Below, piece by piece: positions 1 to 20,095 of a DNA stretch of 41,985 nucleotides. Location: NCBI GenBank assembly GCA_040400605.1, contig JBBAPZ010000010.1, positions 74,714 through 116,698 on the forward strand, given 5' to 3'. A program made the translations under genes and the position numbers. The DNA is from Candidatus Sericytochromatia bacterium (GTDB lineage: Bacteria; Cyanobacteriota; Sericytochromatia; S15B-MN24; JAQBPE01). Numbering within the stretch: position 1 is the stretch's first letter; the number at the start of each line of letters is the position of its first letter. The notes below the pieces were generated by a model, which saw only the letters and a program-made list of their open reading frames with translations, was not told the DNA's origin and did no database searches.

Positions 1-186
1 TCCTTGTACAGCGCTAGCGGGTTTTGGCGTTGCTGACGCACTCGGAGACGCACTCACTGTCGCTGGTGCCTTGGAAGACTTGATACGCCCTTCGGGCGTG
101 ATCGCCACTTTGGTATTGGCCGGACATCCCGTGACACTGATGAGCAGCAGTGTCGTCAGTGAAAAAAAACGAAAAGGGTGTCGCAT
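1..186 (-). CDS. Partial lipoprotein (N-terminal 62 aa, runs off the window edge); probable positional counterpart of the NHL protein at 13598-14929
   Basis: Not in the ORF track. Manual translation from ATG 186 gives MRHPFRFFSLTTLLLISVTGC-PANTKVAITPEGRIKSSKAPATVSASPSASATPKP. It has a lipobox (VTGC), an S/A/P-rich linker and a GGAGG RBS at 197-201. It follows the small lipoprotein, as the NHL gene does in copy 2. Confidence 0.8.
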   Translation of the reverse strand, partial: MRHPFRFFSLTTLLLISVTGCPANTKVAITPEGRIKSSKAPATVSASPSASATPKPASAVQG

Positions 187-217
187 ATCGGTGATGCCTC
201 CTGTAAACAATCAGTGA

Positions 218-688
218 TTAAAAGGGTTGGTTGCGTTCAAGTTGAATTCTGGCTTCCGCTTGTGTTCCGGGGAGCAGTGTAATGTGCGGCAAACGTTTCA
301 GCTCGTCCGAACTCAGAACGAACAGGTAGTCTTCCGATACGATTTGCTTGATTTTAGCGACCTTTGTCGTACCCGCTTCGACGGGAATCCGGAATTCGAG
401 TGGTTGGTGAGGGCCTTGCCATGCATAGGCGCGACTCAAGCGCTGGCTTCCATCGACTTCGGTGATCACGAACAACTGCTCAAAGTCACCTTGTCCAACG
501 AATGTATGCCGTGGCAAACTCACCCACAAACGCAAGATCGCGCTCGTTTCCGCACTTGCCGTTGCATCGTTGATGCGCCAGCTTGAATCCAACGTCGTGA
601 CGCCGGATAAAGGTTGCGTTGGATATGATGCCTGGCAGCCCAGAAGTCCGTACCAAATAGTCGCCACAATGAAAAGGTGCTGCTTCAC
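218..688 (-). CDS. Small beta-rich lipoprotein of unknown function (module copy 1)
   Basis: Lipobox LLGC; GTG start with an AGGAAG-like RBS. Paralog of 14963-15460 (shared SLPxHxF, IVSxDYLF, LxRL and a terminal NQP). Confidence 0.85.
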   Translation of the reverse strand: MKQHLFIVATIWYGLLGCQASYPTQPLSGVTTLDSSWRINDATASAETSAILRLWVSLPRHTFVGQGDFEQLFVITEVDGSQRLSRAYAWQGPHQPLEFRIPVEAGTTKVAKIKQIVSEDYLFVLSSDELKRLPHITLLPGTQAEARIQLERNQPF

Positions 689-698
689 GCTGTCTTCC

Positions 699-2087
699 TC
701 ACAGACGGTCCGGTGTTAATGCCTTATCTACGTTGATGCGACCGAAACCGTAACTCCAGTCTCGCCCCGGCGGCCCCAGATCATCCACGGACGCCAACAG
801 ATGCTGGCGTACTTTATCGACCATCGCCGCAGCACGCTCTGGGGAAGCCAGTGACGCATGACCGGGATCGTACTTGGCAAAAACCAGGGCTGCGACGCCT
901 GCCACAAACGGTGCCGCTTCCGATGTGCCGGAGACGTATGTGTAGCCCGGCGTCAGGTTGCCGCCGATGATGCTGGCCGTCGTTGGAACGGTGGTGAAAA
1001 TACCGCCACCCGGCGCCACGAGGTCCAGGCGGGGACCATAGTTTGAATTGGCATAAGCCAGTTCAAAATTGAGGTGATAGGTCGTTGCTCCCACCGCGAC
1101 GCAATAAGGCGTATTTGCTGGCGATGATACGACGCTGGTGCCTTCGTTGCCGCTCGACGCGACAACCAGGACGCCACGTGTACGCGCGTAAGCGATCGCC
1201 TCGGCGTAAAGCGGATGCACACCCCCGGTATTTTCACCCAGGCTCATGTTGATTACCCGCACCCGGGTTGCACCAACCGTCTGGTTATCCAAGGCATGTT
1301 TGATGCCTGCGATGACATCCCCCAGTACAAAGCCATTGTCATTGTTGTCAGCCTTGATCGGCATCATCCGCACTTCCGGCGCCACACCGGCAATACCCTT
1401 GCCATTGTTGGCACTCGCACCAATGATGCCCGCCGTCACCGTACCGTGTCCGACAACATCGTCCAGCTTGTCTCGCCCGAAACGATTGCTGCCTACATTG
1501 CGCCCGGGTAAAAGTCGACCAGTGAGCTCTTCGTGATTCGGATCAATTCCGGTATCAATGATGGCCACCGCAACTTGCCCTTGATTCACCCCATTTAGCC
1601 GTTCCCACGCCAGTGTTGCTTGGGTAAAGGCGCTTTGCATGCCCCATTGACGCTCAAAATAGGGATCGTTGGGATCGGCATGGGGGCGAGCGATTCGGGT
1701 TGTGTAAACGGCTTGGACATCCTCACGCTCGGCGAGTTGCCGGCGTGTTTGAATGGGGTCAAACGAATCTTTAACCATGACATCCAGCGTGGTACGCCCA
1801 TTCATGCTGAGATCGTGAACCAATTCGACACCCAATTGCCGCGCGGCAGCCAACCAGTTCTCACGCGATGTTTCTTGTGTCAGCGTCACAATCAACCGGC
1901 GCGGCACAACCACAGCAGCCGCGGCTTTTGTTGGCGCAACGGTTTGGTTTTGTGACTGGAGCGGCACGACCGCCTGGTTGGGGCTATCAGGCTTGACGAT
2001 GGAAATTGAGGGATCCGCCTGGCAAGATTGCAGCGTGACAGCACCCGATAAAAGTACACCGATCATGATTGGATGCCAGCGATTCAT
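699..2087 (-). CDS. Lipoprotein subtilisin-like serine protease (S8A) with prodomain (copy 1)
   Basis: Catalytic motifs IIDTG, HGT, ASSGN and GTSEAAP; PNDP at the probable mature start. Start reassigned from 2219 to ATG 2087, which overlaps the upstream stop (ATGA) and gives signal MNRWHPIMIGVLLSGAVTLQSC. Confidence 0.93.
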   Translation of the reverse strand: MNRWHPIMIGVLLSGAVTLQSCQADPSISIVKPDSPNQAVVPLQSQNQTVAPTKAAAAVVVPRRLIVTLTQETSRENWLAAARQLGVELVHDLSMNGRTTLDVMVKDSFDPIQTRRQLAEREDVQAVYTTRIARPHADPNDPYFERQWGMQSAFTQATLAWERLNGVNQGQVAVAIIDTGIDPNHEELTGRLLPGRNVGSNRFGRDKLDDVVGHGTVTAGIIGASANNGKGIAGVAPEVRMMPIKADNNDNGFVLGDVIAGIKHALDNQTVGATRVRVINMSLGENTGGVHPLYAEAIAYARTRGVLVVASSGNEGTSVVSSPANTPYCVAVGATTYHLNFELAYANSNYGPRLDLVAPGGGIFTTVPTTASIIGGNLTPGYTYVSGTSEAAPFVAGVAALVFAKYDPGHASLASPERAAAMVDKVRQHLLASVDDLGPPGRDWSYGFGRINVDKALTPDRL

Positions 2088-3334
2088 AAGCGATAACCCT
2101 CCACGACCGGAAGCGCCGTGCGTGACACACCGATGCCACCTATCGCCCATAACTCTCCGCGGTGAGCAACCAGTGCCAACAGCGCCCGAGCGGTGGGAAG
2201 ATCCGGTAGGCGCTCCCACTTTGCATCCTTACGTTGGGTATTGAAAGACCAGAAGGTTTTTTGCAGGGTACCACCTTCGCTCACGCCCCCGACCAGGTAG
2301 ATGACGCCATTGTTCGCTGTGGCGGCGGCGGAATGACGACCTTCCGGCAAATCCACCCCGGTGGTCCAATTATTGGCGTCCAGATCATAAACTTGAACCT
2401 GTTTCAACGCTTTGTTCGGCGTGCGCGGATCATAACCTCCCAACACATACAGACGTTTGTCAACGACGGAGGACGCGGCGCCTGCCACTGGTGTCGGCAG
2501 GTTAGGGCCCGTTCGGACAGCATCAGGACCTGTTTTGAGCAAATCGATGAGATCCACGCGAGGCAGGGCTCCCGCACTGGCTTCATACACTCCCCCCGCG
2601 ACCACGAAGACATGATCCAACACACCGCCTGCCGGCGCCCGTCGGGGCCTGCTGAGGTTATATGAGCCCCCGTCAGGGCGGCCCTGTGAAAAACCGCTCA
2701 CCTGATAACGCAACAATTCGGTTCGACCCGATCCGCCATCCGGGTTGAAATCGCCCCTGAATCCCCCTGCCGTCCACAACTCGTTGTTATTGAACACACC
2801 ACCTGCACTTAACCACAGACCATATCCCAGCCTGTCTCCACTACCGCTGGTTCCTTTTTCATCATAATTGTCATTGAGTACCCACGAAGGTGCCTGTCTG
2901 TCTGTGCGACCGAAGGCTTCCATCGACGGCCGATGCTCCCCTTCAACGGCAATCAGCACATCATCGACCACCCCTGCCTGCAACCCCGCTCGCCCTCGGT
3001 TTAATGCCGGTTTGACCGTCCACATGCCACTGGGACCCCGAAAATCGAAATCAAAAAAGGGATTCACTTGCGACAAAGGCCCGGTTGACTCGGTGGTGGT
3101 CGGTGTCAAACCACTGACAATCGGAATTGGCCGAAAAGAACCCCACTGCGTTCCCCCGGACGCGCCAGCGACGGGTGCGCCAGACGTTGAAGACGCTGAG
3201 CCGTCACCCCCACCCGATTTGCCTTGGCGTCCCACCGTCACGACCCCCTCGGCGTCCGAGTTGGCGGCAGGTGGCGGGCTCACACAGCTCAACAGCCAGC
3301 CTGTCAACATCAAACAAAGCAAACGTGGCTTCAC
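2084..3334 (-). CDS. Kelch-repeat beta-propeller lipoprotein (Kelch-B, copy 1)
   Basis: Lipobox LLSC and a G/S-rich linker. Kelch motifs LYVLGG..VQVYD..NNW, IYLVGG, LWAIGG. GTGA overlap with the upstream gene. Confidence 0.9.
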   Translation of the reverse strand: MKPRLLCLMLTGWLLSCVSPPPAANSDAEGVVTVGRQGKSGGGDGSASSTSGAPVAGASGGTQWGSFRPIPIVSGLTPTTTESTGPLSQVNPFFDFDFRGPSGMWTVKPALNRGRAGLQAGVVDDVLIAVEGEHRPSMEAFGRTDRQAPSWVLNDNYDEKGTSGSGDRLGYGLWLSAGGVFNNNELWTAGGFRGDFNPDGGSGRTELLRYQVSGFSQGRPDGGSYNLSRPRRAPAGGVLDHVFVVAGGVYEASAGALPRVDLIDLLKTGPDAVRTGPNLPTPVAGAASSVVDKRLYVLGGYDPRTPNKALKQVQVYDLDANNWTTGVDLPEGRHSAAATANNGVIYLVGGVSEGGTLQKTFWSFNTQRKDAKWERLPDLPTARALLALVAHRGELWAIGGIGVSRTALPVVEGYRL

Positions 3335-5115
3335 GGAATCAACTCCTCCACCTCATCGATGGGCCAAGGATACCCATCGGGTGAATCGCCCAAGACGCCT
3401 CCGGCCACCACGATTCGCTCGGCGTCTGCCAACTTCACAAGCCCTGCAGCCGGATATGAACGGGCGATCTTCAGAGGCGCCCGACGCGTCCATGTATCGG
3501 TGGCCGGGTCATAAACCTCCACGGCGTGACTGGCAACACCCCGCGCTTCTTCGCCACCAATCACCCAGATTTTATCGTTCAACACGACGGAGGCTGCCCC
3601 ATAACGCGGTGTCGGCATGCCATTGATCGATCGCCACTGCCCGATCGCGGGATCCAACACCTGCACCGCGCTAACCGGCGCCAGAGCCGACAAATAACCG
3701 CCAATGGCATACAACTTGTTGCCCACCACACCGGTTGCGGCCGCATTGACGGGTGAGCGTGGCCCCCCGACAACATCACCGTCGAATGCACCCGTCTCGA
3801 TATTGAATCTGGCCATCACGCTTTCACTGCGATCGTTGAAGCCTGTGAGGAAAAGCGTGCTTCCTATTCGCCCACACACCCCATCCGTAAAACTGAAATT
3901 GGCAGGCAAGTCACCCTGGATCACAACATTGCCTGTGTCTTTTTGTTCGATGATGCCCCATTTACGTGAGACCGCCTCATTGAGGTATCCGCCAAAAAAA
4001 TGAATCTTGTTGCCAATCGCGCTAAAGCCCGCGCCGTAAATGGGAAAATTGTTCGGCAAGTTAATAACCGACTTCCACCCCTGTTCACGATTGAAACGCC
4101 AAGCCTGTTGCGCCTGTGCCACACGTGTCACGGCCGGCACAGCGCCTGGTTCATCAGACGGTGCACTAACGCCTCCAATCACCCATAGTCCATCGGACAT
4201 CGTCAAACCCATCCCTCGCCCCAATCGCACGGGCAGACGCACCCCGGGTTGACTTTTTACAAATGAAGGCACGCGATAAGACACTGTTGAACCCGCCCCG
4301 ACCTCCAGACTTGCCTGAATCTCTTGCCAGTCAGGTCCTTTTTCCAACGGTGTGATTGTCAGCGTGCGACCGATTGAACCTGCTAAAACGGGATAAAACT
4401 GGAAGGGTTCACCCCGTTGAACGTAAACGGAACGCGAGGCACCATCATCCAGCGTTAATCGCGTGAGCAATCCTTTGGGATAATCATCAAAGGAAATATT
4501 GACAGTCGCAACGCCGACTGCCCAATCGGAAGCAGGCTTGGGCAAGTCTTTCGATGACTTTCCGGTAATGGCCGCCGCCACGCGCTCCGCAACAATTTGG
4601 CGCGGGGTGACAAGCCCAAGTTGACGCGTCGCATCTTCGACCACGTAACGCATGGTGACAAGATCGAACGTATCGGCATCCGGTGCATTGTTTCGTTTAA
4701 GCGCTTCGTACACCGCTGCGGTGGCTGTGCTCAGATCATTCAAACGCACATTGTTGACGCCACCGTGAATGCTCATGACGTGGCTGAGACGCACCTGACC
4801 CATGGGATTCTTTTTACTGTCCAACCATTCGAGCGTCACCACTTTGCGCTCACCGACCGGCACATTGTCAATGCGCGCCTGTGTGTCATTAAGATTGAGT
4901 TCTGCCCGAAAAGGCGCCTCAGCACTGCCAATGGACATCACACTCAAACGCACGGCATCACCGGCTTCAATCTGTTGCAGTCTACGTGGACCGGAATCGA
5001 GAGCTAACTGCAATGACGCAACCGCGGGAACCAAGCGTGCTGTCTCCCTTTCCCAGGAACAAGCCCCGAGCAGGGTGAATGCGGTTGACCACACCCATAC
5101 GTTTCTTTTAAACAT
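3331..5115 (-). CDS. Lipoprotein with N-terminal beta-sandwich/helical regions and a C-terminal Kelch propeller (Kelch-A, copy 1)
   Basis: Lipobox LGAC from ATG 5115 (TTG 5133 is an alternative start). Kelch repeats LYAIGG, MPTPRYG..IWVIGG..VEVYDP..W. Paralog of 18167-20095 with a shared C-terminus GDSPDGYPxPxDxVEELIP. Confidence 0.9.
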   Translation of the reverse strand: MFKRNVWVWSTAFTLLGACSWERETARLVPAVASLQLALDSGPRRLQQIEAGDAVRLSVMSIGSAEAPFRAELNLNDTQARIDNVPVGERKVVTLEWLDSKKNPMGQVRLSHVMSIHGGVNNVRLNDLSTATAAVYEALKRNNAPDADTFDLVTMRYVVEDATRQLGLVTPRQIVAERVAAAITGKSSKDLPKPASDWAVGVATVNISFDDYPKGLLTRLTLDDGASRSVYVQRGEPFQFYPVLAGSIGRTLTITPLEKGPDWQEIQASLEVGAGSTVSYRVPSFVKSQPGVRLPVRLGRGMGLTMSDGLWVIGGVSAPSDEPGAVPAVTRVAQAQQAWRFNREQGWKSVINLPNNFPIYGAGFSAIGNKIHFFGGYLNEAVSRKWGIIEQKDTGNVVIQGDLPANFSFTDGVCGRIGSTLFLTGFNDRSESVMARFNIETGAFDGDVVGGPRSPVNAAATGVVGNKLYAIGGYLSALAPVSAVQVLDPAIGQWRSINGMPTPRYGAASVVLNDKIWVIGGEEARGVASHAVEVYDPATDTWTRRAPLKIARSYPAAGLVKLADAERIVVAGGVLGDSPDGYPWPIDEVEELIP

Positions 5116-5161
5116 GGCGCTGGCTTTCGTCAAAAAATCACGATCTAGCTGTCATGTACCC

Positions 5162-5201: not shown

Positions 5202-5237
5202 CCATTTTTTGCCGAAGAATTTTCGTTTGGAAAATTC

Positions 5238-7370
5238 TTATTTGCTACTCTGTGCTTCGAGATCGAGATCGAACTCGTACAGGCCATTGCGCTGCAAGCC
5301 CGCATACTTCTTGGTGATGTTATCCGCCGAGGCTTGTGTATTGTAGAGATTGAGATCTTTTGATGTGGGATTGTCATTCCCGTCCAAGTCTCGTACGATT
5401 GCCCGTTTGAATTCCAGCTTAAGCGGGTCATCCGTCTTGACGTGTAGGGGGAATTTCAACGATATGGTGGACTGATTATTGCCCTTGAATTTATAGACAC
5501 GCATAGCGCTTTCGCCTTCTACCTGCAGTTCTAGCTGAATGGTGCTGCTCGCAGGAATCGGCAAATTGGGGCTCTTGACATTAAAGGTCAGATTGGGGCT
5601 CATTTTGCGTAAACGCAACTTGGTCAAGGGATTGGACGACGACGACGTGACCTGTTTGATGTTACCCAAGCCAACCGATGCATCATTGCGCGGATTGGGA
5701 TATACATATCGCGCCTGCATTTCGATTGTGTAATCCGCTTGCACAAAATTTCTCGCTTGGCCCGGATTATCATTTTGGCGTGAACGAACAGGTTGTGGGG
5801 CAGGATCCTCGACGATCTTATCCCACCTGACGACAAAGTTACAGAAACATCCACCTGGCGTGTAGCCTTTTCGCATTGAGTAGTTGCTCGGATCACCTTG
5901 ACCGTTGTAATCCAGGTTGTCAGCAACTTCTTCGAAAATGCCGGGGCTGAACGGACTGCCTTGTTTTGTAATCACTTTGACACTGTTTCCATTTATCACG
6001 GTGTTAAAGTCAACTTCGGATTGCGGCATTCCGACTTTTTTAAAGTTTGCTGTTTTGAATTCGTAAAGCGTGTAATCTTGAGCACCATTTTGTTGAATGC
6101 TGGTCTGGGTGCTATGGATACCCACCCAGCCTTCGCCTGGCATTTTGATGCGCTTGTAAACGCCACCTTGCTTCTCGAGCGACCAATCAGCAAAATTGTT
6201 CTCGTTGAGTGAGCCGGTTACGGTTTTTTCACATTTGTTGCCAGATAGATTGAAACCCGGGGCACATTCTGGATTCCCATTTTGATCAAGGGTTGGATTC
6301 TCGACCAATTTGTGGGTGTAGGAGATTGTGCTGCCTGAGCGGTTGGTGATGGTTGCATCATAGCGTTCCTGAGCGACAGCGTCTGATGGCCATTTTTTTG
6401 TTACCCAGTGAAAACCGGGATTGATGGCCGCCGCCATGACGCGTCCAAAGGTTACGTGAGGATGGCTGATACTGAATTTGCTTCCGGCCGATTCGGGGAT
6501 TTTGCTGCCGTCAAAATCGTTTAATTCGCCGACAGCGAGTTGCTCATCCAATGGTGTATCTGCAAAATAGTCTGCACTGCTGTCATGGTCCGATTGCCAG
6601 CGGCATTCCGCCTCAATTCGATACTTTGGTGGCTCAGCCGGCAACGCCTGCGAACGGTAGTCGCAATACGCCTCAATGCGACTGTCGCGCCGGAATTTGG
6701 CCGGATTTTCCGTCTTGATCGGCGCAAAACCCTCTGTCATCTCACCCCGCCGGGTGTCCGTGGTCTTCGGAGCTAACTCAAGCGGCATCGGCTCCAAACG
6801 CGGCCCGTCGATGCTCATCGTAATATTCCAGTTGCCCTGGGCATCTTGGGACAGGCTGTAACGGTCTGGCGTAAAGTCGGTGTACATGGATTTCAATTCA
6901 TCGACAAAACGCTTGTCCGCCCGCGACGACACGGTAATCTTCGCACCCGGCTTGATATACGCTTTGCCGATGTCCATCTGAAACTTCATGCCAGCAAGGC
7001 GCTGCGCCGTATTCGTTTCTTTCGACGTATCCAACGGAATGAACCGCACATCCGCATCCTCGGACAACGCGCCTGGCGGAATGTTGGCAACCAGCAATCC
7101 ATCGCCAAACACGTATTGCCCGCCCTTCGCCGCGTTTACCCGCATTGGTGGCGCTTGCTCCACAATGTCCACACCGCTCAACGTTCCGGCATTGGTTTCC
7201 TTGGCAGCATCACCAGCAGTTTTGCCAGGACTCAGCCTGTTGGTGATTTGGTTAACCTGATCCTCTGGTGCTCTTGTCAAGGCAGTAGGGGTTTGACAAC
7301 CCGCCAAGACAGCCAGAACCAGCAAGCCAGCAACACTGTTGACACGTTTGCCGCGTTCCAATGATTTCAC
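5238..7370 (-). CDS. Large modular lipoprotein (ZU5-like N-domain, variable central insert, beta-sandwich C-domain), copy 1
   Basis: GTG start with AGGAG RBS; lipobox LAGC. GG..DG...IPPGAL resembles the ZU5 signature. Clear paralog of 11311-13452. Confidence 0.9.
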   Translation of the reverse strand: MKSLERGKRVNSVAGLLVLAVLAGCQTPTALTRAPEDQVNQITNRLSPGKTAGDAAKETNAGTLSGVDIVEQAPPMRVNAAKGGQYVFGDGLLVANIPPGALSEDADVRFIPLDTSKETNTAQRLAGMKFQMDIGKAYIKPGAKITVSSRADKRFVDELKSMYTDFTPDRYSLSQDAQGNWNITMSIDGPRLEPMPLELAPKTTDTRRGEMTEGFAPIKTENPAKFRRDSRIEAYCDYRSQALPAEPPKYRIEAECRWQSDHDSSADYFADTPLDEQLAVGELNDFDGSKIPESAGSKFSISHPHVTFGRVMAAAINPGFHWVTKKWPSDAVAQERYDATITNRSGSTISYTHKLVENPTLDQNGNPECAPGFNLSGNKCEKTVTGSLNENNFADWSLEKQGGVYKRIKMPGEGWVGIHSTQTSIQQNGAQDYTLYEFKTANFKKVGMPQSEVDFNTVINGNSVKVITKQGSPFSPGIFEEVADNLDYNGQGDPSNYSMRKGYTPGGCFCNFVVRWDKIVEDPAPQPVRSRQNDNPGQARNFVQADYTIEMQARYVYPNPRNDASVGLGNIKQVTSSSSNPLTKLRLRKMSPNLTFNVKSPNLPIPASSTIQLELQVEGESAMRVYKFKGNNQSTISLKFPLHVKTDDPLKLEFKRAIVRDLDGNDNPTSKDLNLYNTQASADNITKKYAGLQRNGLYEFDLDLEAQSSK

Positions 7371-7722: not shown

Positions 7723-7733
7723 GATGCTCGTGC

Positions 7734-11136: not shown

Positions 11137-11250
11137 GAATGATTCTTATCCACCACAGATCGTGTCTGTCTCACAGGGCGTTAATATGCATCGGACGCTA
11201 CATTATACGGCTTGTCCCTCGTTGTTGCCCACGGCAAGGCGTTGTCATGC

Positions 11251-11282
11251 AAAAAAAGTTGGGAGGCGAGCGCCTCCCAACT
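11251..11282 (-). terminator. Rho-independent terminator after large lipoprotein gene 2
   Basis: Perfect inverted repeat AGTTGGGAGGCG/CGCCTCCCAACT with a T7 run on the minus strand. Confidence 0.92.
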
Positions 11283-11310
11283 CATCCTTAACCCGTAACC
11301 CGTGTTTGCC

Positions 11311-13452
11311 TTACTTGGCGCCTTGTGCCTCAAAGGTCATACTGAGCGGATAAACACCGTTACGCTGAATCGTCATCTTCTCCAACGCCGCGAGGGTCAA
11401 CTGGGTTGCCGACAGATTCAGGTTCTCGATGTAGGCTCGTTTTACCTGGAAACTGGCCGGATCATCGTTCTTCAGGCGAATGAAGAAATCAGCGCTCAAC
11501 TCGTTACCGCCGTTTCCTGGCCACCTGTAAACTCGATTCTCACCGTCAACCACCGTCTCCAATACCAGTGTGGACCCAGTGGCAAATGGCACGTTCGGGC
11601 TGTTCATCGTCACTTGAAGCAAGGGACTGTTTTTGGTTAATCTCAATTGTGCGACCGGATTGCTGGCACCTACCGTCATGGTCACCGCATTGCTGAGATT
11701 GTTTTGATTACCTCGTGGATTGGGATAGTTGTACGTCGCCTGTATCCCGATGGTAAAACCATTCCGCGCGATGTTGTTCGCGCGACCGGGATTTTGACTG
11801 GTCCTGCCCCTGACCGGCTGCGGAGCCGTGTCGTGGACAATGTTGTCGTAATGAACGACGTAATTGCAATGACAACGCCCATTCCATTCGTGTCCCCGAC
11901 GCACGGTCTGGTTGTTGCCCACAGTGAATGCATCCGCACGCTCTTCGAAAATACCCCGGAATTTGAGCGCACCCTGCACATCGATCTGCTTCGCTTCGGT
12001 TGCGACACCATTTGTCCGCTTGATCACCACCCACCAATCAGGATTCTCGAACTGCAAGACCTTGCCATCAGCCAGAGTGAACTTCACCTCGGTCCACGTA
12101 TCCGTGCCTACCGTCGTCGCCACATTCTGGTAACTATCAATGCCAACCCAATTCCCTGACGCCAGTTTGATGGCACTATACCTGCCGTTATCGGTTTCAA
12201 TGGAATAAGGCGCGTAACCATCCTTGCTGATGGTGCGTGTCGGCTTCGGAGTTGGCGTGGGAGACGGTGTGGGCGTCGGTGATGCCGTGGGCTCAGACGA
12301 TGGCGTAGGTGTGGGTGCGCAGGGTATCTGCCAGTTTGTTTCGCATGACAAAGGGGATGACCCCAAGTCGGATGGTTGAGGTAAAAATTGCGTCAGACGG
12401 TATTCACCCTTTTTGAACGTGACGAACTCTTTTGCCGACTCCTCTTTCACGGATTCCCAGTGACTCACTTGCGGAACGGCGGCTTGTGGTGACGTCAGAG
12501 TCACCCAGTGCGTGCTCGTCGGAATGTTGCGGGCGCCCACATTGCCGAATCTGACGGTTGGCTTGGAAGGGTTACCCGCAACTTTCGACCCATCCGCCCA
12601 TCCCGTGTCACCGGTTGCGAGATCACCGTGAAAACCGATGCTGCCCAAGTAATCTGCATCTTTTTCATGGTCTGAAATCCAGCGCACTTCGGAGTCGACA
12701 TTGTACATCGGCTGAGGCGGCGGCGGCGGCGTGTACTCGCAAAACGCCTCGATGCGGCTATCACGTTTGAAATTGGCAGCGCTCTTTGAATCAATGGGCG
12801 CCATGCCTTCTGTCATAATGCCACGGCGAGAGTTTTTGAAGGGATCTTCCGGTGTGAAATCATATGGAATCGACTCCACACGAGGCCCCTCAACCGGCAT
12901 CTCAATGTTCCAGTTGCCCTTGTCATCCTGCTTCAGGCTATAACGCTCTGCCGTGAAATCCGTGTACATTGACTTGAGTTCGGGCACGAAGCGTGCATCG
13001 GCGCGCGCGGCGACCATAATGCGGCTACCGGGCTTGAGGTACGCCTTGCCGATATCCATTTGGAAACGCATCCCAGCCACCCGTTGCGCCGTATTTTTCT
13101 GTTTTGATGTATCCAGTGCCACGAAGCGCACTTCGGCATCTTCAGACAAAGCACCTGGGGGGATGGTCGCTGTGAGCAAACCATCCGGGCTTACGTAAAC
13201 ACCGCCTTTTTCCGCGGAAATGAGCATCGCGGGAACGAGATCAACCGGCGCCACTTCTGATGGCAAATCCCCTTCGCTCAAGGACTGCCCCGGCGCCTGG
13301 TTTTGTATGCCAGCGCCAGTTTGCCCAGTCAGGGCAATTTTGTTCTCACTGTCGGTTTTGATGGCCTGCGGAGTTTGACAGCCCATCAATACGGCAATAG
13401 CAACACCAAGCGATACACTGCCGCTTGCGCTGAGGCGACGCCACTTTGACAT
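11311..13452 (-). CDS. Large modular lipoprotein, copy 2 (with an internal PT-rich linker)
   Basis: Start reassigned to ATG 13452 (AGGAGG RBS at 13461-13466); lipobox LMGC. Shares IPPGALSEDA, FQMDIGKAY, ELKSMYTDFT, RDSRIEAxC, CxCN, YPNPR and QRNG with 5238-7370. Confidence 0.9.
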   Translation of the reverse strand: MSKWRRLSASGSVSLGVAIAVLMGCQTPQAIKTDSENKIALTGQTGAGIQNQAPGQSLSEGDLPSEVAPVDLVPAMLISAEKGGVYVSPDGLLTATIPPGALSEDAEVRFVALDTSKQKNTAQRVAGMRFQMDIGKAYLKPGSRIMVAARADARFVPELKSMYTDFTAERYSLKQDDKGNWNIEMPVEGPRVESIPYDFTPEDPFKNSRRGIMTEGMAPIDSKSAANFKRDSRIEAFCEYTPPPPPQPMYNVDSEVRWISDHEKDADYLGSIGFHGDLATGDTGWADGSKVAGNPSKPTVRFGNVGARNIPTSTHWVTLTSPQAAVPQVSHWESVKEESAKEFVTFKKGEYRLTQFLPQPSDLGSSPLSCETNWQIPCAPTPTPSSEPTASPTPTPSPTPTPKPTRTISKDGYAPYSIETDNGRYSAIKLASGNWVGIDSYQNVATTVGTDTWTEVKFTLADGKVLQFENPDWWVVIKRTNGVATEAKQIDVQGALKFRGIFEERADAFTVGNNQTVRRGHEWNGRCHCNYVVHYDNIVHDTAPQPVRGRTSQNPGRANNIARNGFTIGIQATYNYPNPRGNQNNLSNAVTMTVGASNPVAQLRLTKNSPLLQVTMNSPNVPFATGSTLVLETVVDGENRVYRWPGNGGNELSADFFIRLKNDDPASFQVKRAYIENLNLSATQLTLAALEKMTIQRNGVYPLSMTFEAQGAK

Positions 13453-13597: not shown

Positions 13598-14929
13598 TCA
13601 CGGAATCACCAGTGTCCTGATACGACCGTCGTTGAGATCCGAAAACAGAAGGCGATTTGGGCGTTGAAATGTCAGGGCGGTGATGAAGGTTGCCGGTAAC
13701 TCCTTGAAGGTTGATACATCGCCTGATGCAGTCAGTTTTTGGATTCGGTAGTTGCTCGTGTCCGCCAGGTACAGGATGCCGTTTTCGTCTTGGGTCAATA
13801 TCGTTGGGTTCGCGAAATTGGCGTCTGAGCCTTTGCCGTTGGCGTCACCATATTCGGATCCGGCCAAGGTGCTGACTGCTTTGCTGCCGGTGTTGATCAC
13901 CCGCACGCGTTGCCCTGAGCGATCCGACACGTAGACCTTCGAGCCGTCTGCACTACATAGGATCGACGCCGGTTCGTTAAACGTCGCAAGGTCGCCATCA
14001 CCGTCTTCGTTGCCCGCGTTCCCACTGCCGGCCAAGTTGCTGACGCCACCAGTGACAAGGTTGATTTGGCGTACCTTGCGGTTGCCTTGATCCACCACGT
14101 ATAACGTGCCAGCATCAGGAGACAACGCCAACGCAACAGGCGAGTTAAACCGTGCCGCGCTACCGGTTCCATTGTCCGCACCGGACTGCCCAGGTGCCCC
14201 TGCAATCGTGGTAACGGCCGCTGTGTCGCCCGTGAGTGCCAACTTTCGAATGGTGTGGTTTGCAGTATCCGCTACGTAAAGCTTGGTGCCATCGGGTTGA
14301 CAAACCATTCCCTTCGGCGCATTGAATCGTGCCTTCGTGCCCACTTCATCCGTGCTGCCGCTCGTTCCGGCGAGACCTGCGATTGTCTTGACACTCCCGT
14401 CGCTCGCGATGCGTCTGACAATGTTTGATTCTAACGTGAACACCAAGCCAGCCGCATCGGCACACAAGGCCTGCACCGTATCGAACTGCGCCACATCCGC
14501 TGCACCATCACGGGAACTGCCGATGCCAGGTTTGCCACTTAACACCTCAATGCCTGTAACCGGGCTGACAGTCGCTACGGGCGCCTGCGATGATGGTGCT
14601 GGCGCCGGTGTGCCACTGGCCAGAGGAATCGGTGTCGCTGAAGCAGGTACCGGACTTCGTGGCAGAGCGCTTGTGTTCGGCGAGGGTGACGGAACACCAA
14701 CCACTGGGGAGCCGCTCGCTTGAGGACTCGCGCTCGCGGAACTGCCGGGGCTTATAGATGCTGAGCCGCCCGGAGCGATTGAACCGCTCGGCTTGGGTAC
14801 AGATGTGCCACCTCTGACCACACGACCGGAGCTTGTCGTGCCAGCACCCGTTGTGACTGTGCAGGCAAAACCACAACTTGCAACCAACCACAGGCATAGT
14901 GCCCTGCGCTGTCTGGATGTCATTTTCAT
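13598..14929 (-). CDS. NHL-repeat beta-propeller lipoprotein with an S/P-rich linker
   Basis: Signal peptide with Cys (VASC or GFAC). Repeats of type DG..A.FN.P..L...G..LYVAD..N..IRK. Confidence 0.9.
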   Translation of the reverse strand: MKMTSRQRRALCLWLVASCGFACTVTTGAGTTSSGRVVRGGTSVPKPSGSIAPGGSASISPGSSASASPQASGSPVVGVPSPSPNTSALPRSPVPASATPIPLASGTPAPAPSSQAPVATVSPVTGIEVLSGKPGIGSSRDGAADVAQFDTVQALCADAAGLVFTLESNIVRRIASDGSVKTIAGLAGTSGSTDEVGTKARFNAPKGMVCQPDGTKLYVADTANHTIRKLALTGDTAAVTTIAGAPGQSGADNGTGSAARFNSPVALALSPDAGTLYVVDQGNRKVRQINLVTGGVSNLAGSGNAGNEDGDGDLATFNEPASILCSADGSKVYVSDRSGQRVRVINTGSKAVSTLAGSEYGDANGKGSDANFANPTILTQDENGILYLADTSNYRIQKLTASGDVSTFKELPATFITALTFQRPNRLLFSDLNDGRIRTLVIP

Positions 14930-14962
14930 GGTTCGGGTCCTCGTTCCATCGGTGCTCGCGTA

Positions 14963-15460
14963 TCAGGTCGGCTGATTGATAGTCAATGGAATCTGCACGA
15001 TCACACCATCGCCATCGCGCACCGCCATGCTGCCAAGCCGAGTTAAAGTCTCGCTGGGTGCCAAAAACAGGTAATCGTGCGACACAATTTTGTGAATGCG
15101 CAGAGCGTGGGGACCTGTATCTGGCACAGCAACCCGCATGTTGAGCGTCGTCGTACCGTCATGGGTGTCAACGTAGGCCTGTTGTAAGGGGCCATCATCA
15201 AGGGCATAGCGGATGAGCCATCTCTCAGGCCCGTTGTTGAGAAAATTGTGCGACGGCAAGCTTAACTGGAGCCGCACGGCAACGCCCTGTTGTCCCCCGG
15301 CTTCAGTTGCCTTGAACCACGTGGCAGCCGGTGCGATTGCAGTCGGAACAGTGGCAGGATTGGGTGATGATGGCACTTGGCATCCTGGCAGCAACAATAG
15401 TAAACCAAGGGATCTGAACACGTGTCGCATTGGCATCACCAGTGACCTTTCCTGTTTCAC
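14963..15460 (-). CDS. Small beta-rich lipoprotein (module copy 2)
   Basis: Lipobox LPGC; GTGA overlap with the protease stop (a slightly later ATG is possible). Paralog of 218-688. Confidence 0.85.
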   Translation of the reverse strand: MKQERSLVMPMRHVFRSLGLLLLLPGCQVPSSPNPATVPTAIAPAATWFKATEAGGQQGVAVRLQLSLPSHNFLNNGPERWLIRYALDDGPLQQAYVDTHDGTTTLNMRVAVPDTGPHALRIHKIVSHDYLFLAPSETLTRLGSMAVRDGDGVIVQIPLTINQPT

Positions 15461-16896
15461 GGCAAGCTTGAAGGGCTCAATGCCTTGAGCACATTGATGC
15501 GACCTGCGCCGTAGCTTGGATCCCAGCCATAAGGGCCGAGATCATCGACGGCGCGCAACAGGTGTGCCCTTACCCGATCAACCATCGCCGATGCTTGTTC
15601 TTCGGTTGCCAATGAGGCGTTGTTGGGGTCGTATTTGGCAAAAACGAGCGCCGCAACGCCACTGACATAAGGTGCTGCTTCGGATGTTCCGGATGCGTAA
15701 GCGTAACCACGAATATCATTTTGACCACCCAACGTACCAATCATGTTTTCCGTGGTTGGAATCGGCGCCAAAATGCCACCGCCAGGAGCAACGAGGTCGA
15801 GACGTTCCCCGTAGTTGGAAAACGGTGAGACAAACTCGAAGCCCAGATGTTGGCTGGTCGAACCAACCGCCAGACAATAAGGTGTATTGGCAGGTGTCCC
15901 CACAACGTCGGAGCCCAGATTGCCTGTCGATGCGACGACCAGGATGCCTTTTCGTCTCGCCCACGCAATTGCTTCCGCATAAAGGGGGCGCACCCCGCCG
16001 ATGTTTTCCCCCAGACTCAAGTTGATTACCCGAACACGACTGCTGCCTTGGACCTGTTGGTCGATCGCATGGCGCATGCCCGCCAGGAGGTCCATGAGTG
16101 AGAAACTGTTGGTGGTGCCATCTTCCTCAAAGTAATCCGCTTTGATCGGCATAATCATGGCATCGGGCGCGACCCCGGCTCCTCCTTTGCCATTGTTTGC
16201 GCTCGCGCCCATGATCCCGGCAGTCAAGGTTCCATGACCGACGAAATCCCGCAGGTCGTTCACTCCCCAACCATTGCTTCCGACATTGACCCCGCCTACG
16301 AGACGCCCTTGAAATTCTTCGTGCGTCACATCAATGCCTGTGTCGATCATCGCCACGGTGACTTTGCGCTGTTCCACACCCTGCAACTGTCCCCAACCCT
16401 CTTCGGCATTCGCAAACCCTTTTTTGTGCGCCCACTGCTCCTGAATACGGGGATCGGCAGGCACGGAATTGACCTTGGCCACTGAATCCCGATAAACCCG
16501 CAGCACCCCCGGCAATTGTCCCAGGGCTGCGATCGCCGCGCTTGCTGATTGCTCGTTTCTCCACCCCACGCTGGATACCCAGGCATCCGATAACTTCATG
16601 TGCCGTAAAAGCTTCCAGGGACCACCGCTGAGACTGGCACGCGCTTGTGCTTCGTCGCGATTGTCCGTCCAGACCACGATGGCGCGATCGGCCCGGAACT
16701 GTTCGACACCCTGCAGCTTGACCGGTTGAACAGGGTGAGCCAAGCGATCGTTTTGCTTCATCCCTTCCGATGGCCCCGCCAGATTGGAAGGGCTCATCCC
16801 AACACCACTGGATGGCGCACAGGCCACACTGGCTAACAAGAGGCCCAGCACGCCAACACAATGCGTGCCGCGCCAAAAAATCGCAGGCATTTTCAT
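15457..16896 (-). CDS. Lipoprotein S8A subtilase (copy 2)
   Basis: MIDTG, HGT, ASTGN, GTSEAAP. Start reassigned to ATG 16896 (ATGA overlap); signal ends LLASVAC. Confidence 0.93.
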   Translation of the reverse strand: MKMPAIFWRGTHCVGVLGLLLASVACAPSSGVGMSPSNLAGPSEGMKQNDRLAHPVQPVKLQGVEQFRADRAIVVWTDNRDEAQARASLSGGPWKLLRHMKLSDAWVSSVGWRNEQSASAAIAALGQLPGVLRVYRDSVAKVNSVPADPRIQEQWAHKKGFANAEEGWGQLQGVEQRKVTVAMIDTGIDVTHEEFQGRLVGGVNVGSNGWGVNDLRDFVGHGTLTAGIMGASANNGKGGAGVAPDAMIMPIKADYFEEDGTTNSFSLMDLLAGMRHAIDQQVQGSSRVRVINLSLGENIGGVRPLYAEAIAWARRKGILVVASTGNLGSDVVGTPANTPYCLAVGSTSQHLGFEFVSPFSNYGERLDLVAPGGGILAPIPTTENMIGTLGGQNDIRGYAYASGTSEAAPYVSGVAALVFAKYDPNNASLATEEQASAMVDRVRAHLLRAVDDLGPYGWDPSYGAGRINVLKALSPSSLP

Positions 16897-18170
16897 GGTG
16901 TGAAAGCCTCCACAGTGCTCAACGGCGATCGCTGCTTGCCAATCCCACCAATGGCCCAAACCGAATCTTTGTAAGTTACCGCCGCACACAAAGCACGCGC
17001 AGTCGTCAAGGCAACGCCTGTACGCCACGTTGCCTTGGGATCCCTTAAATTCAACCAGTACACCGAGTCCAGGACATCCCCCGTTTGAGACTGTCCGCCC
17101 AACACATACAAAACATCATTCAACACGCTCGCAGCGGCTGAATGTAACGGAATCGGCAGTTCCGGCGGCGCACCGGCGTCACCGGACTTGAGCCACTGAT
17201 TGGCTACCGGGTCATAGACCTGCACCATCTGAACAGCCCTGCCGCCTGCAGTTTCTGGAACATATCCCCCCAAGACGTAAAGCTTCTCTTTTGTAACCGC
17301 GGAAGCCGCGCCGGCGACGGCCAACGGCATCGCAGCACCACTGGATTGGGCGCGATCCCCGGCTTCGGTGAGATTGATGACATCAACACCCCTCACCGCA
17401 CCGCTTGACGCCTGAAAAACCCCGCCCGCAACGATGAAGCGAGCCCCCACCACACCACCACACGCCGCCCGACGTGCCTGCCGCAGAATGTAAGGACCTT
17501 CACCAGGACGACTCAGTCTGAACCCTTCCAAGGTATACAAATATACGCTCGAACGCCCCGATGAACCATCCGCGTTGAATTGCCCACGCAATCCCCCCGC
17601 TATCCATAATTCATTCTCGAATACACCACCGACTGCAAGGTACAAACCTTGGTGCAGGGTGTTTGAGTCAGACGCTCTTGCCGGCTGAAGCTCCGCATCG
17701 TAAGTGTCATTGAGATACCAAACGGGGATAGCCCCGCGATCATCCAATACCTCCAAGCCCGGACGATGGTCGCCCTCCACCAGAATCAAACGATTGTCGA
17801 TCACACCTGCACAAAGTCCGGCACGGGGACGCATCAGCGGCGATTTTTGTGTCCATACACCCTGCGCATCCCTGATGGCCAAACTTAACCCCTGCTCGGC
17901 CTGAATCACGGAGTTCGGATCATCAGGACCCAACGCGCTCGGTATGATGCCCCATGGCCCCTTCACGATCGGTCCATTCGGACGTGACGTTGCAGCAACA
18001 TCTGGACGACGCGATGGGAGTACCGCAGCGCCAGGACCCACCCGTGGCGGCGGCGTTTTTTTGATGTTTACCACCGAATCACGGCTTTCAGGTCCAACGG
18101 CAGTCTGTGGGGCAGTGCTCACACAACTGGCCAGGATCAGGCCCAACGTCATCCAAACAACCCGCATCAT
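16893..18170 (-). CDS. Kelch-repeat lipoprotein (Kelch-B, copy 2)
   Basis: Lipobox LASC; Kelch repeats. Shares EGxHRP, LNDxYD and AGGxRGxFNxDGxSGR with 2084-3334. ATGA overlap. Confidence 0.9.
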   Translation of the reverse strand: MMRVVWMTLGLILASCVSTAPQTAVGPESRDSVVNIKKTPPPRVGPGAAVLPSRRPDVAATSRPNGPIVKGPWGIIPSALGPDDPNSVIQAEQGLSLAIRDAQGVWTQKSPLMRPRAGLCAGVIDNRLILVEGDHRPGLEVLDDRGAIPVWYLNDTYDAELQPARASDSNTLHQGLYLAVGGVFENELWIAGGLRGQFNADGSSGRSSVYLYTLEGFRLSRPGEGPYILRQARRAACGGVVGARFIVAGGVFQASSGAVRGVDVINLTEAGDRAQSSGAAMPLAVAGAASAVTKEKLYVLGGYVPETAGGRAVQMVQVYDPVANQWLKSGDAGAPPELPIPLHSAAASVLNDVLYVLGGQSQTGDVLDSVYWLNLRDPKATWRTGVALTTARALCAAVTYKDSVWAIGGIGKQRSPLSTVEAFTP

Positions 18171-20095
18171 GGGATTAATTCCTCAACAACATCCAGCGGA
18201 TACGGATAACCATCCGGTGAATCGCCAGCCACACCCCCTGCCACGATGATGCGCGGTTTACCATCTTTCAATACCACACTCACCGCAGGGTAAGAACGCC
18301 CACGCTTCAGTGGAATCCGACGCTCCCAAACATCATTGACCGGGTCGTAAACCTCCACGGCGCGACTGGGCTGACCTTTGCGTCCTTCACCCCCAATCAC
18401 CCACAGTTGGTTGTTGACCGCCACCACACCACAACCATAGCGTGGTGTGGGCATTGACAAACCCTTACGCCAACCTAACGCATCCGTATCCAGAATCTGC
18501 ACATGGCCTTCCGGCACCGCGGGCTTCGTATAGCCACCAAACACGTACCATTTGTTTCCTGACACCGCACCAGACGCTCCCTGTACAGGAACCGGAAGAC
18601 CCGGTGCGCTGACATCCGGAAAGATTTTGTTTTTGGGGTCGAAAATAAGCATCTTGTCATTTAGCAAAGCGAAAACATTTGGATTGATAAATCCCCCAGC
18701 CACGAATATCCGTTCTCCCACCGTCGCAGCAACAGCGTTAGCCATTACCAGACGGTTGCCCGCACGGGGATCCAATCCCGGCAAAGCAGGCAATGTAAAA
18801 GGTTCGGAGAGTGTCGCCCGGTCATTCAGGTTGATCACGTGCACACGGCCATCCGGCTCTTCATTCACGAAGCCCCCAAATCCGTAAATCTGGTTCTCGA
18901 AACGAGCCGTCGCCACACCGTAAATCGGGAAGGTCTCATCCAATTGACCCACCTCAGCCCAGTTGCCTTGCGCGCCGTAACGGTATACCTTACGCGATGC
19001 CTTGACCGCGCTTCGCAAGAGTGGCTGTGGCACCTGTTTAATGGGTGAAGGCGTTGCCCCCACCACCGTACACGCATCATTGCCAGGCAGCGTTCTGAAA
19101 CAATCGAACCCTGACGGCATGGTCAAACCCCCAATCAACCACATCCCCTGGTTTGACGCATCCGTTTGGTACATTGCCCGGCCAATCGGTTCCGGCATCG
19201 CTGCAAGCGGTTTGGCCACCCCAAAACTCAGCGGTGAAGGTGTTACCAATTCTCCAGGGAATACATTGAATGAGACGCTGATTGGCTTGAGGTCAGAACT
19301 TGCCTCAAGGGGTGTGACGATCAATTCCCGTGGCAAGTCTCCCGGGATGACTGGCTCAATGTCCGTCGCTCCGCCCGTGCGGTTAAACAAGGGCTTGGAC
19401 AGACCGTCGTCGATGTCGATGCGTACCGGCAGTCCCGGTGGATAATCCGTGAAGCGAACGGACACCTTTGCGGGGCGCACGGTCCAGGCTCGTTCAGGTT
19501 CAGGGATGTTTTTGCTGGTTTTTCCAAGAACCGCCTGACCCAATTTCACGACATCGATCAATCGGGCGGAAGGCAAACTGAATTTTTTGGTGCACTCACC
19601 AACCAGATAGTCTAACATCGCATAATCAAACTCGGCTGCATCTTTGGGATGGTTGCGCAGCATCCACAAAAATGCATCGGCCGCTGCCGTTCGTTGCTCA
19701 TTCAAAATTGCTTCGTTGCGCCCCACGCCCAGGTTCGTGATCGTTGCCCAGTGGAACGCTGGAATGGGAGCCAATTTGTCATTCAAGCCATCAATGCTGA
19801 TGATGCAGCGCTCGGCGATCGGCGCATCGGGAATCAACAACCAATTCCCGGGTTGCGGCAATTTCTGGATATTGGTTTTGATTGGCTCTTTCAGATTCTG
19901 TGACGTGATGGTCACCAACAGATACTTGGGTTGACGCAAAAACGTTTTGGAATCTTCCTTAAGAATTCGAAAAGCCAACGACGAACGGGGCGATTGGACG
20001 CCATGGTCAGGCTGAACACTCGGTGCCTGACAAGCCATAATCGCGGCAAATGTCAGCGACAGTGTCCAAAGACGCAGGAAGCCCGTTCGTTGCAT
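18167..20095 (-). CDS. Beta-sandwich plus Kelch lipoprotein (Kelch-A, copy 2)
   Basis: Start reassigned to ATG 20095 (AGAAGGGA upstream); lipobox IMAC; Kelch C-terminus paralogous to 3331-5115. Confidence 0.9.
   Translation of the reverse strand: MQRTGFLRLWTLSLTFAAIMACQAPSVQPDHGVQSPRSSLAFRILKEDSKTFLRQPKYLLVTITSQNLKEPIKTNIQKLPQPGNWLLIPDAPIAERCIISIDGLNDKLAPIPAFHWATITNLGVGRNEAILNEQRTAAADAFLWMLRNHPKDAAEFDYAMLDYLVGECTKKFSLPSARLIDVVKLGQAVLGKTSKNIPEPERAWTVRPAKVSVRFTDYPPGLPVRIDIDDGLSKPLFNRTGGATDIEPVIPGDLPRELIVTPLEASSDLKPISVSFNVFPGELVTPSPLSFGVAKPLAAMPEPIGRAMYQTDASNQGMWLIGGLTMPSGFDCFRTLPGNDACTVVGATPSPIKQVPQPLLRSAVKASRKVYRYGAQGNWAEVGQLDETFPIYGVATARFENQIYGFGGFVNEEPDGRVHVINLNDRATLSEPFTLPALPGLDPRAGNRLVMANAVAATVGERIFVAGGFINPNVFALLNDKMLIFDPKNKIFPDVSAPGLPVPVQGASGAVSGNKWYVFGGYTKPAVPEGHVQILDTDALGWRKGLSMPTPRYGCGVVAVNNQLWVIGGEGRKGQPSRAVEVYDPVNDVWERRIPLKRGRSYPAVSVVLKDGKPRIIVAGGVAGDSPDGYPYPLDVVEELIP

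Follow-up and report, generated by a model that had tools for sequence, protein, structure and literature searches.

Two lipoprotein gene clusters of a Sericytochromatia bacterium as candidates for a membrane-anchored subtilase complex of dentilisin type

In Treponema denticola a single operon, prcB-prcA-prtP, encodes dentilisin, a complex of the outer membrane in which the acylated subtilisin PrtP is joined by two lipoproteins, PrcB and PrcA (PMC8167434; here and below we draw on parts of that paper). In those parts PrtP is described as a pre-pro-protein whose acylated 15-kDa N-terminal piece is missing from the purified mature complex, the 70-kDa PrcA is cut in two in a PrtP-dependent manner, and PrcB and PrcA1, which alone keep their lipids, presumably anchor the complex. 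The same parts name SphB1 as the sole subtilisin-like protease besides PrtP that is acylated and call PrcA and PrcB unique to oral spirochetes (PMC8167434). Here we analyze a stretch of 41,985 nucleotides from a Candidatus Sericytochromatia bacterium (assembly GCA_040400605.1, contig JBBAPZ010000010.1, positions 74,714 to 116,698; the whole stretch is called the window, and coordinates refer to it unless another contig or locus is named). It opens with two clusters of lipoprotein genes, each containing two Kelch-propeller proteins (KelchA and KelchB) and a protease of family S8. We propose, at about even odds (a probability near 0.5), that the product of each cluster is a subtilase complex of dentilisin type, anchored through lipoproteins. 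A first-pass annotation of the window had recognised no described system of such a kind, and dentilisin, as the cited parts present it, is one. We searched the literature at the level of abstracts, and neither a Kelch-subtilase lipoprotein operon nor this module in Sericytochromatia was described there.

The window belongs to contig C10 of a genome of 3.7 Mb assembled in 174 contigs, and open reading frame (ORF) calls place both clusters in its first 20 kb, on the minus strand. In copy 1 the gene order is large1, KelchA1, KelchB1, S8_1, small1, NHL1, where NHL1 starts at position 185 and crosses the window edge; in copy 2 it is KelchA2, KelchB2, S8_2, small2, NHL2, large2. The six genes are thus common to both copies, and the position of large is the sole difference in arrangement. 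Genes for a class A penicillin-binding protein and a rhodanese lie between the copies, and the remainder of the window holds ordinary housekeeping genes. Pfam bears out the identities first assigned to the propellers and the protease: Kelch_1 scores 74-79 bits (cut-off 20.1) in all four Kelch proteins, Peptidase_S8 scores 171.8 and 164.2 bits (cut-off 21.8) in the two S8 proteins, and NHL2 matches TEN_NHL (59.9 bits) and NHL (46.5 bits). Large and small have no family match in Pfam or NCBIfam.

KelchA, KelchB and S8 form a triad of translationally coupled genes, joined in both copies by the 4-bp start-stop overlaps already seen in the first-pass annotation. KelchA1 (3331..5133, minus strand; lipobox LGAC) has a beta-rich N-terminal region of ~300 residues followed by a Kelch propeller; its ORF opens at a TTG at 5133, but translation more likely begins at the ATG at 5115. 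KelchB1 (2084..3334, minus strand; LLSC) consists of a G/S/P-rich linker and a Kelch propeller, and its GTG start overlaps the KelchA1 stop (GTGA). The ATG of S8_1 (699..2087, minus strand) overlaps the KelchB1 stop in turn (ATGA), and S8_1 is separated from small1 by 10 nt. In copy 2, all on the minus strand, KelchA2 (18167..20095), KelchB2 (16893..18170; LASC), S8_2 (15457..16896) and small2 (14963..15460) are joined in succession by ATGA, ATGA and GTGA. All 12 encoded N-termini, those of the triad included, have a hydrophobic stretch ending in a Cys at residues 16-27. The lipobox that had been claimed for every one of them is canonical in 8 (7 by a strict pattern script, and VTGC of NHL1 by eye) and looser in the other 4 (S8_1 LQSC, S8_2 SVAC, small2 LPGC, KelchA2 IMAC). 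Among orthologues from other genomes, lipobox-like signals are found in 20 of 21 S8, 21 of 22 KelchB and 13 of 17 KelchA proteins.

The conserved core of the clusters is this triad, not large. In 23 of 23 loci of other genomes, all from one Sericytochromatia order, the order and strand of Kelch, Kelch and S8 are identical. These loci (15 genomes in families f1-f4) comprise 3 picked by a match to large and 20 picked by a match to KelchA, the latter a subset of the KelchA matches listed; the selection was thus made on KelchA or large and not on S8. The synteny holds at every locus examined, which supports the first-pass idea of a dedicated envelope module of lipoproteins that has an S8 protease of its own, and shows the module to be conserved. 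The three intact loci picked by large read NHL-large-KelchA-KelchB-S8 on one strand. Large is absent at 19 of the 23 foreign triad loci, a count that speaks against its assignment as the major subunit. Genomes often carry 2-3 diverged triads. In a sample of 301 genomes across the phylum, the KelchA N-terminal region occurs in 11, all in this order (f1 7/7, f3 3/10). Triads with large and NHL alongside, which we call type I, belong to one triad lineage in one family: loci L013, L014, L016 and L053 and the two window copies.

We then asked a structure predictor for a complex of the KelchA propeller, KelchB and mature S8 (the partner), each submitted with an alignment of 19-24 orthologues. The score was 0.70 (0.58, 0.70 and 0.70 in the three runs), and the best of three controls scored 0.01. 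In calibration the 0.70 mark corresponds to 116 of 157 solved complexes versus 2 of 215 mismatched pairs, counts that hold only roughly here, as the calibration used single-chain pairs and other alignments and our input had three chains with alignments of their own. At least 42% of the contacts agree between runs, and the partner's predicted local distance difference test score (pLDDT) is at least 83. The confident contacts run from loops of many KelchB blades to residues 199-269 and 319-328 of the submitted S8 piece, and include four residues before the Gly-Thr-Ser active-site motif. We know of no solved Kelch-subtilase complex that the predictor could have memorised. An interface between members of the module, as the first-pass annotation had proposed to look for, is thus predicted for KelchB and S8, and the prediction supports binding of mature S8 by KelchB. 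Taken together, the strict order and the 4-bp overlaps, with the order kept in 23 foreign loci, and the predicted KelchB-S8 interface argue for a fixed complex.

The S8 protein itself is a thermitase-like subtilase, with AK.1 protease and thermitase as its closest solved relatives, and its catalytic Asp, His, Asn and Ser (Asp178, His214, Asn314 and Ser389 in S8_1) do not vary among the 24 triad S8 sequences aligned. It is built as a lipoprotein pre-pro-enzyme: a lipobox-like signal, a Pro/Ala-rich linker, a prodomain region of ~80 residues and the catalytic domain. The Pfam model Fervidolysin_NPro-like (cut-off 21 bits) matches the prodomain region of orthologues at L050 (32.5 bits) and L045 (28.6 bits), and below the cut-off at L046 (17.2 bits); this region aligns full-length with both window S8 proteins and across all orthologues. 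Subtilases usually remove the prodomain on activation. Because the prodomain sits between the lipid anchor and the catalytic domain, activation should sever S8 from its own anchor. In the mechanism we propose, mature S8 would lose its lipid in this way, and binding to the KelchB propeller, on its top face, and probably also to KelchA would keep it at the membrane. In the type-I lineage three further lipoproteins would have joined the operon: the ZU5-like large, the NHL propeller and, in this genome only, small. These are most likely clients of the complex, as substrates or presented binding modules, and would not be part of its framework.

Several points weigh against this proposal. The complex score is the model's own confidence rather than a measurement, and among the contacts listed none joins KelchA confidently to S8, which is not evidence against their binding. 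The N-terminal regions of the window S8 proteins have no Pfam prodomain match, the prodomain being placed there by alignment to orthologues, and its cleavage in the triad S8 is assumed from general subtilase behaviour. The best NCBIfam model for both proteins is mycosin TIGR03921 (163.9 and 162.6 bits; cut-off 278.75) and the second best is dentilisin PrtP (denti_PrtP; 90.8 and 76 bits; cut-off 300); far under both curated cut-offs, they belong to neither family. Large, NHL and small, as putative clients, could simply be co-expressed with the triad. Lastly, in five genomes of the same family (L041, L043, L044, L052 and L054) galM-galE-galT-galK is followed, ~200 nt downstream, by a triad of a second lineage, which could point to a nutritional role instead.

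This last observation leads to a different account, in which the lipoproteins are co-regulated and physically independent: the protease would degrade outside proteins or glycoproteins, Kelch, NHL and large would bind the substrates, and no stable complex would form. The source genome has ~20 S8 paralogues and dozens of NHL proteins by tblastn, the 2-3 diverged triads per genome are as expected of substrate-diversified systems, and dentilisin itself also serves nutrient acquisition according to the parts of the paper cited above (PMC8167434). The Kelch proteins bear on this account in two ways. Their matches in NCBIfam are weak and to sugar mutarotase-type models (NanM/YjhT), as foraging would suggest; their closest solved chains, however, are designed Kelch propellers, KLHL2/3/12/20 and KEAP1, that is, protein-binding propellers and not NanM. 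The KelchA N-terminal region (residues 30-300) gave no usable lead in the ESM Atlas, the best feature score being 0.78 and the structural matches being generic beta-sandwich spacers of glycoside hydrolases. A transporter gene was not found as a conserved triad neighbour in the flanks of the fetched loci, and the gal cluster of the source genome (contig C1:249411-253743) has no triad after it, so the adjacency may be inherited gene order only. With the arguments for a fixed complex also counting against it, we consider independent foraging lipoproteins possible and rather unlikely.

Returning to the proposed complex and its candidate clients, we find that large and NHL go together. They are adjacent in 5 of 5 type-I loci in which both are visible (L013, L014, L016, L053 and window copy 2); in copy 1, large1 and NHL1 occupy opposite ends of the cluster. 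NHL2 (13598..14929, minus strand) is a lipoprotein with an S/P-rich linker and an NHL beta-propeller, and a propeller of this type is also found inserted in the middle of large proteins: in family representatives P0008 and P0012, and in a third large paralogue of this genome, large3 (L029:10001-13102, a locus that joins contigs C12, C55 and C6). Large3 has 1034 residues and is ~90% identical to large2 in both flanks; the NHL propeller replaces the P/T-rich linker, and the 10 kb around it contain neither Kelch nor S8 genes. The occurrence of the propeller inside large proteins links NHL and large functionally.

The other companion, small, is more restricted. Small1 (218..688, minus strand) is a 156-residue lipoprotein (LLGC) and small2 has 165 residues (LPGC). 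Both are homologous to the last beta-sandwich domain of large (hhalign probability 93.3%, E 2.7e-7 over 86 columns; large C-domain profile against small2, E 3.8e-6), and small reads as a stand-alone copy of that domain which lacks its terminal Lys. A tblastn search for small in the loci of ten relatives gave only weak matches to the C-terminus of large homologues, a small profile run over the triad flanks found only the two window copies, and in 7 other genomes of the family there was no true match, the lone one, in G004, covering the signal peptide only. The search for homologues that the first-pass annotation had suggested therefore divides: large has them in all 7 other genomes of the family, small in none of these. 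Being confined to one of 8 family genomes, small is also poorly placed for the role of anchor or chaperone once given to it.

Large is a rare new lipoprotein family. A search of 5.8 billion clusters, with the best 8000 candidates scored, gave 7 proteins, and one of 1.84 billion gave 73 representatives, most of which share the N-terminal domain only; genome by genome, large is matched in 7/7 others of the same family and in 0/33 genomes of the other families searched. Its members are beta-rich, multidomain proteins of about 500-1034 residues. Large1 (5238..7370, minus strand; 710 residues, LAGC) has a ZU5-like N-domain at residues 70-195, an invariant unstructured motif at 207-238, a variable middle at ~263-520 and two C-terminal beta-sandwich domains ending in a C-terminal Lys; large2 (11311..13452, minus strand; 713 residues, LMGC) is 40% identical to it, has a P/T-rich linker in the middle and also ends in Lys. 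An alignment of nine orthologues (A1) shows the same division into a very conserved N-domain, an invariant stretch, a variable middle and a conserved C-terminal part with Cys-x-Cys, Pro-Asn-Pro, QRNGxY and the terminal Lys. The invariant stretch reads RRGxMTEGxAP...DSRIEAFCDY followed by prolines and is disordered in both structure models.

A model of the N-domain made with 25 sequences is confident over residues 70-195 (model residues 1-125 mostly have pLDDT >90). In fold searches it comes closest to the ZU5 domains of ankyrin and ZO-1, with VIA Z 7.2 (3ud1; root-mean-square deviation 3.7, 106 aligned), 6.9 (6m3q), 6.1 (3f59) and 5.7 (2kxr), values to be read knowing that a best Z of 7-8 is typical of this tool even where there is no clear relative; Foldseek gives probability 0.98 at E 0.03. 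GAIN, UNC5b, FIIND and Nup98 come next. From the sequence side, the large-family profile reaches Pfam ZU5 proteins at library-wide E 1e-4 to 8e-4. A Pfam ZU5 scan of 30 proteins gave 6 matches: two come from strong members of the family and stay below the cut-off (P0033, E 0.014; P0044, E 0.055), and four are weak family-profile matches of which only P0077 is above it (22.7 bits). P0073 also carries ZU5 (28.2 bits). The N-domains of large1 and large2 themselves have no match to Pfam ZU5 (PF00791) even at E 10, the N-domain profile has 0 matches at E 10 among PDB sequences, and the ESM Atlas gave no usable lead for large1 (best score 0.79, one cluster with ZU5 in 24% of its members). We thus assign a ZU5-like fold with moderate structural and sequence support.

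Such a fold raises the thought that large is its own protease, the ZU5-like domain being an autoproteolytic release domain through which large sheds its C-terminal part with no help from S8. Self-cleaving relatives (GAIN, FIIND, Nup98) do follow ZU5 in the fold list, and ZU5 self-processing has been proposed as general in bacterial surface proteins, polymorphic toxins included, in the part of the source we draw on (PMC3482391). The best matches, however, are the ankyrin and ZO-1 domains, which do not cleave. No motif for self-cleavage is conserved, whether His-Phe/Leu-Ser/Thr or the Cys-x-His ('CxH') of PMC3482391: A1 has no invariant His in residues 70-262, and the nearest conserved Cys motif reads Cys-x-Tyr. 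As the window also holds no toxin domain or immunity gene, we regard self-cleavage as extremely unlikely. A reading of large as a polymorphic toxin was rejected for want of a toxin or immunity domain and of a cleavage motif. From the known ZU5 domains of ankyrin, ZO-1, UNC5, PIDD and FIIND, large differs in being an extracytoplasmic lipoprotein that has no self-cleavage motif.

The middle of large is a strain-level hypervariable region. Comparison of close strain variants gives 100% identity for the ZU5-like domain and 94% for the C-terminal part, but 72% for the middle. Contigs of related strains (sequencing runs X6 and X13) have, in place of the middle of large1 (5744-6405), a sequence of similar length whose divergence prevents alignment at 90%, and the P/T linker of large2 (12280-12394) differs in length. 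The C-terminal residue, on the other hand, is strongly biased: among 39 family members with a matched C-terminal domain it is Lys in 31 (17 Pro-Lys, 10 Ala-Lys), His in 3 and Arg in 2, so 36 of 39 end in a basic residue, versus 4.3% ending in Lys among 1908 long ORFs of this genome; Lys710 is invariant in A1.

These ends suggest another reading of the operon, as an adjustable membrane-to-wall tether: large would be held in the membrane by its lipid and cross-linked to peptidoglycan through its C-terminal Lys, and the Kelch-held S8 would cut the invariant motif for release. Two YkuD L,D-transpeptidase genes are present in the genome, and in the part of the OutB study we draw on, a single C-terminal Lys of OutB is enough for attachment by an L,D-transpeptidase, through a motif that tolerates substitutions and can tether a reporter protein (10.1101/2024.09.03.610988). 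The Arg-Arg-Gly motif, moreover, lies in a modelled-disordered segment between the N- and C-terminal halves of large. Against this, YkuD enzymes occur widely (in 7 of 14 control genomes), the motif is present not only in all triad-linked large proteins seen but also in the stand-alone large3, and most triads have no large nearby. The fast-evolving middle (72% identity against 94-100% in the flanks) is easier to reconcile with exposure at the surface than with a strut in the periplasm. The argument runs by analogy, with a putative wall chemistry and a presumed likeness to the working of NlpI-Prc and LbcA-CtpA, and we hold the reading as a whole doubtful. That large is a new tether whose Pro/Ala-Lys end would be attached to peptidoglycan, in an operon encoding both the tether and a dedicated release switch with Arg-Arg-Gly as the cut site, has by the same analogy only a slim chance of being right. 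Like Braun's lipoprotein Lpp and OutB, large has an N-terminal lipid anchor and a conserved C-terminal Lys in a genome with L,D-transpeptidase genes. Lpp, however, is a 58-residue helical trimer and large is beta-rich and multidomain, with no Lpp match in Pfam or NCBIfam, and the end motif is Pro/Ala-Lys as against the Arg-Lys or Lys-Lys of the Lpp type. In lineages close to cyanobacteria no covalent tether of Lpp type is known to us, an absence for which no search was made.

The C-terminal domains bear on the model that the first-pass annotation had favoured, a protease-matured polymeric appendage resembling a type V pilus, with large as the subunit, the propellers as tips, small as anchor or chaperone and S8 as maturase. 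Here all parts are indeed lipoproteins with a dedicated protease, as are the gingipain-matured FimA/Mfa1 precursors of type V pili, and large has a conserved Arg-Arg site. The full-length model of large1 is weak (mean pLDDT 49.3), with only the C-terminal part usable for a fold search. That part resembles transthyretin-like sandwiches (Z 8.2-9.2), and the last domain (residues ~590-710), which small shares, resembles Bacteroidia fimbrial N-terminal domains at Z 6.0-6.9 (Mfa3, 5nf4, Z 6.1; BDI_3522, 3r4r, Z 6.9), scores exceeded by those of secretin pilotins (Z 7.6) and, being below 8, common for beta-sandwiches. We read these likenesses, given the model behind them, as generic beta-sandwich. 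No pilin family, type V or other, was matched in Pfam or NCBIfam, the Arg-Arg motif lies ~180 residues after the lipid-bearing Cys and not near an N-terminal strand, the pilus protease is of family C25 where here it is S8, and large stands outside the conserved core, with small found in this genome only. A pilus or other polymer is thus very unlikely, and a dentilisin-type complex remains our preferred reading.

The relation of the two copies is clear from both position and sequence. Copy-against-copy tblastn, together with the ORF positions, confirms two paralogous minus-strand clusters where the first-pass annotation had put them, with E 1.7e-143 for large, 1.2e-93 for KelchA, 1.1e-77 for KelchB, 3.9e-128 for S8, 5.6e-63 for NHL and 1.3e-8 for small. 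The amino-acid identities are 40% (large), 34% (KelchA), 41-44% (KelchB), 60% (S8), 29-30% (small) and 45% (NHL). With 29-60% identity the differences are not mainly synonymous, contrary to what had been stated; that the duplication is old and maintained does hold, given deep divergence with both copies intact. In a tree of S8 sequences the window copies are sisters (support 98/96; branch lengths 0.46 and 0.29) inside a type-I clade (100/100) of large-associated triads from other genera, which places the duplication within this organism's own lineage. We infer that the whole six-gene set was duplicated there and both copies were kept intact.

This includes the gene cut by the window edge. Its visible 5' part (1..185, minus strand) encodes a signal with the VTGC lipobox and an S/P-rich linker, so its description as an S/P-rich lipoprotein was apt; it is not a kind apart but the NHL of copy 1, whose propeller lies beyond the edge. 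NHL1 continues in contig C10, and an otherwise identical metagenome contig, L028, encodes an intact NHL protein of 431 residues; both copies therefore hold the same six genes. In the linker of NHL1, contig C10 (~74614-74713) has ~100 extra bases with a repeated segment relative to L028:12730-14025, and the frame is broken. The extra bases probably stem from misassembly of low-complexity sequence.

At the other end of the module, a terminator-like hairpin found by consensus scan (11256..11283, minus strand; a 12-pair stem, then a T run) lies just downstream of large2 and probably marks the end of the copy-2 operon. Consensus scans for promoters and terminators are otherwise at the level of shuffled sequence (11 versus 11.4 and 22 versus 23.4), only this hairpin standing out. 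The best promoter-like site of the region (10/12) comes after the hairpin, ahead of the penicillin-binding protein gene, within 11202-11283 (minus strand). RNA-library contigs of the freshwater metatranscriptome X13, from a related strain (90-99% identity), cover all of large1 with the start of KelchA1 and all of large2, and the S8 and Kelch genes only as fragments; such contigs prove no transcription and rank no genes.

Elsewhere in the window, four overlapping or abutting genes at 21136-25407 (minus strand) encode a squalene/phytoene synthase, an FAD amine-oxidase-type desaturase, an acyltransferase and a family-2 glycosyltransferase, presumably a pathway to a glycosylated, acylated carotenoid in a non-photosynthetic organism. 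The protein encoded at 33038-38101 (plus strand) has 1687 residues and resembles a giant signalling protein of STAND type: it combines an AAA_16 ATPase, TPR repeats and GAF with weak matches to kinase and GGDEF. Encoded at 30471-32063 (minus strand) and 38168-38518 (plus strand) are two neighbouring paralogues of Big_2 (bacterial Ig-like) type and a 116-residue protein with a dockerin-type match.

If the proposed complex is real, it would be a second, independently built system of dentilisin type, spread across an order of uncultured non-photosynthetic relatives of cyanobacteria and using partners unrelated to those of dentilisin. An independent second lipoprotein-subtilase system suggests that the design is a general answer to the membrane retention of a protease that processes itself. 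KelchB and S8 offer a concrete candidate pair of interacting proteins, and the prediction would assign a bacterial role to Kelch propellers of KLHL type. Large is newly defined as a rare family with a ZU5-like domain and a terminal Lys, and its end motif makes wall attachment directly testable.

How, then, does the triad compare with what is known of envelope proteases and their partners? In NlpI-Prc and LbcA-CtpA, a lipoprotein adaptor with TPR repeats serves an S41 PDZ protease whose substrates are cell-wall hydrolases. The likeness is that of a repeat-domain lipoprotein binding an envelope protease, which it would tether or direct; the difference is that here an S8 protease is paired with a Kelch propeller. 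Mycosin (MycP), whose family model is the best NCBIfam match of both window S8 proteins, is likewise a membrane-tethered S8 protease dedicated to an envelope machine. Its anchor, however, is a C-terminal helix, that of the triad S8 would be an N-terminal lipid, and the window has no ESX genes. The closest parallel is dentilisin. As far as the cited parts describe it, dentilisin shares with the triad a single operon for two accessory lipoproteins and an acylated S8 subtilase made as a pre-pro-protein, and PrcA, at ~70 kDa, has the size of KelchA (PMC8167434). It would also share the proposed mechanism, in which activation costs the protease its acylated piece and the mature enzyme is kept at the membrane by the accessory lipoproteins. 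The triad differs in its partners, which are Kelch propellers (no dentilisin model other than PrtP was matched in NCBIfam), in that the gene of the large accessory protein comes first, in its several paralogous copies per genome with extra lipoproteins (ZU5-like large, NHL and small), and in its host, which is free-living and of another phylum. With an S8 that scores below the PrtP cut-off and so is not a PrtP orthologue, and with unrelated Kelch partners, the triad is best regarded as an analogue of dentilisin and not as a member of its family.

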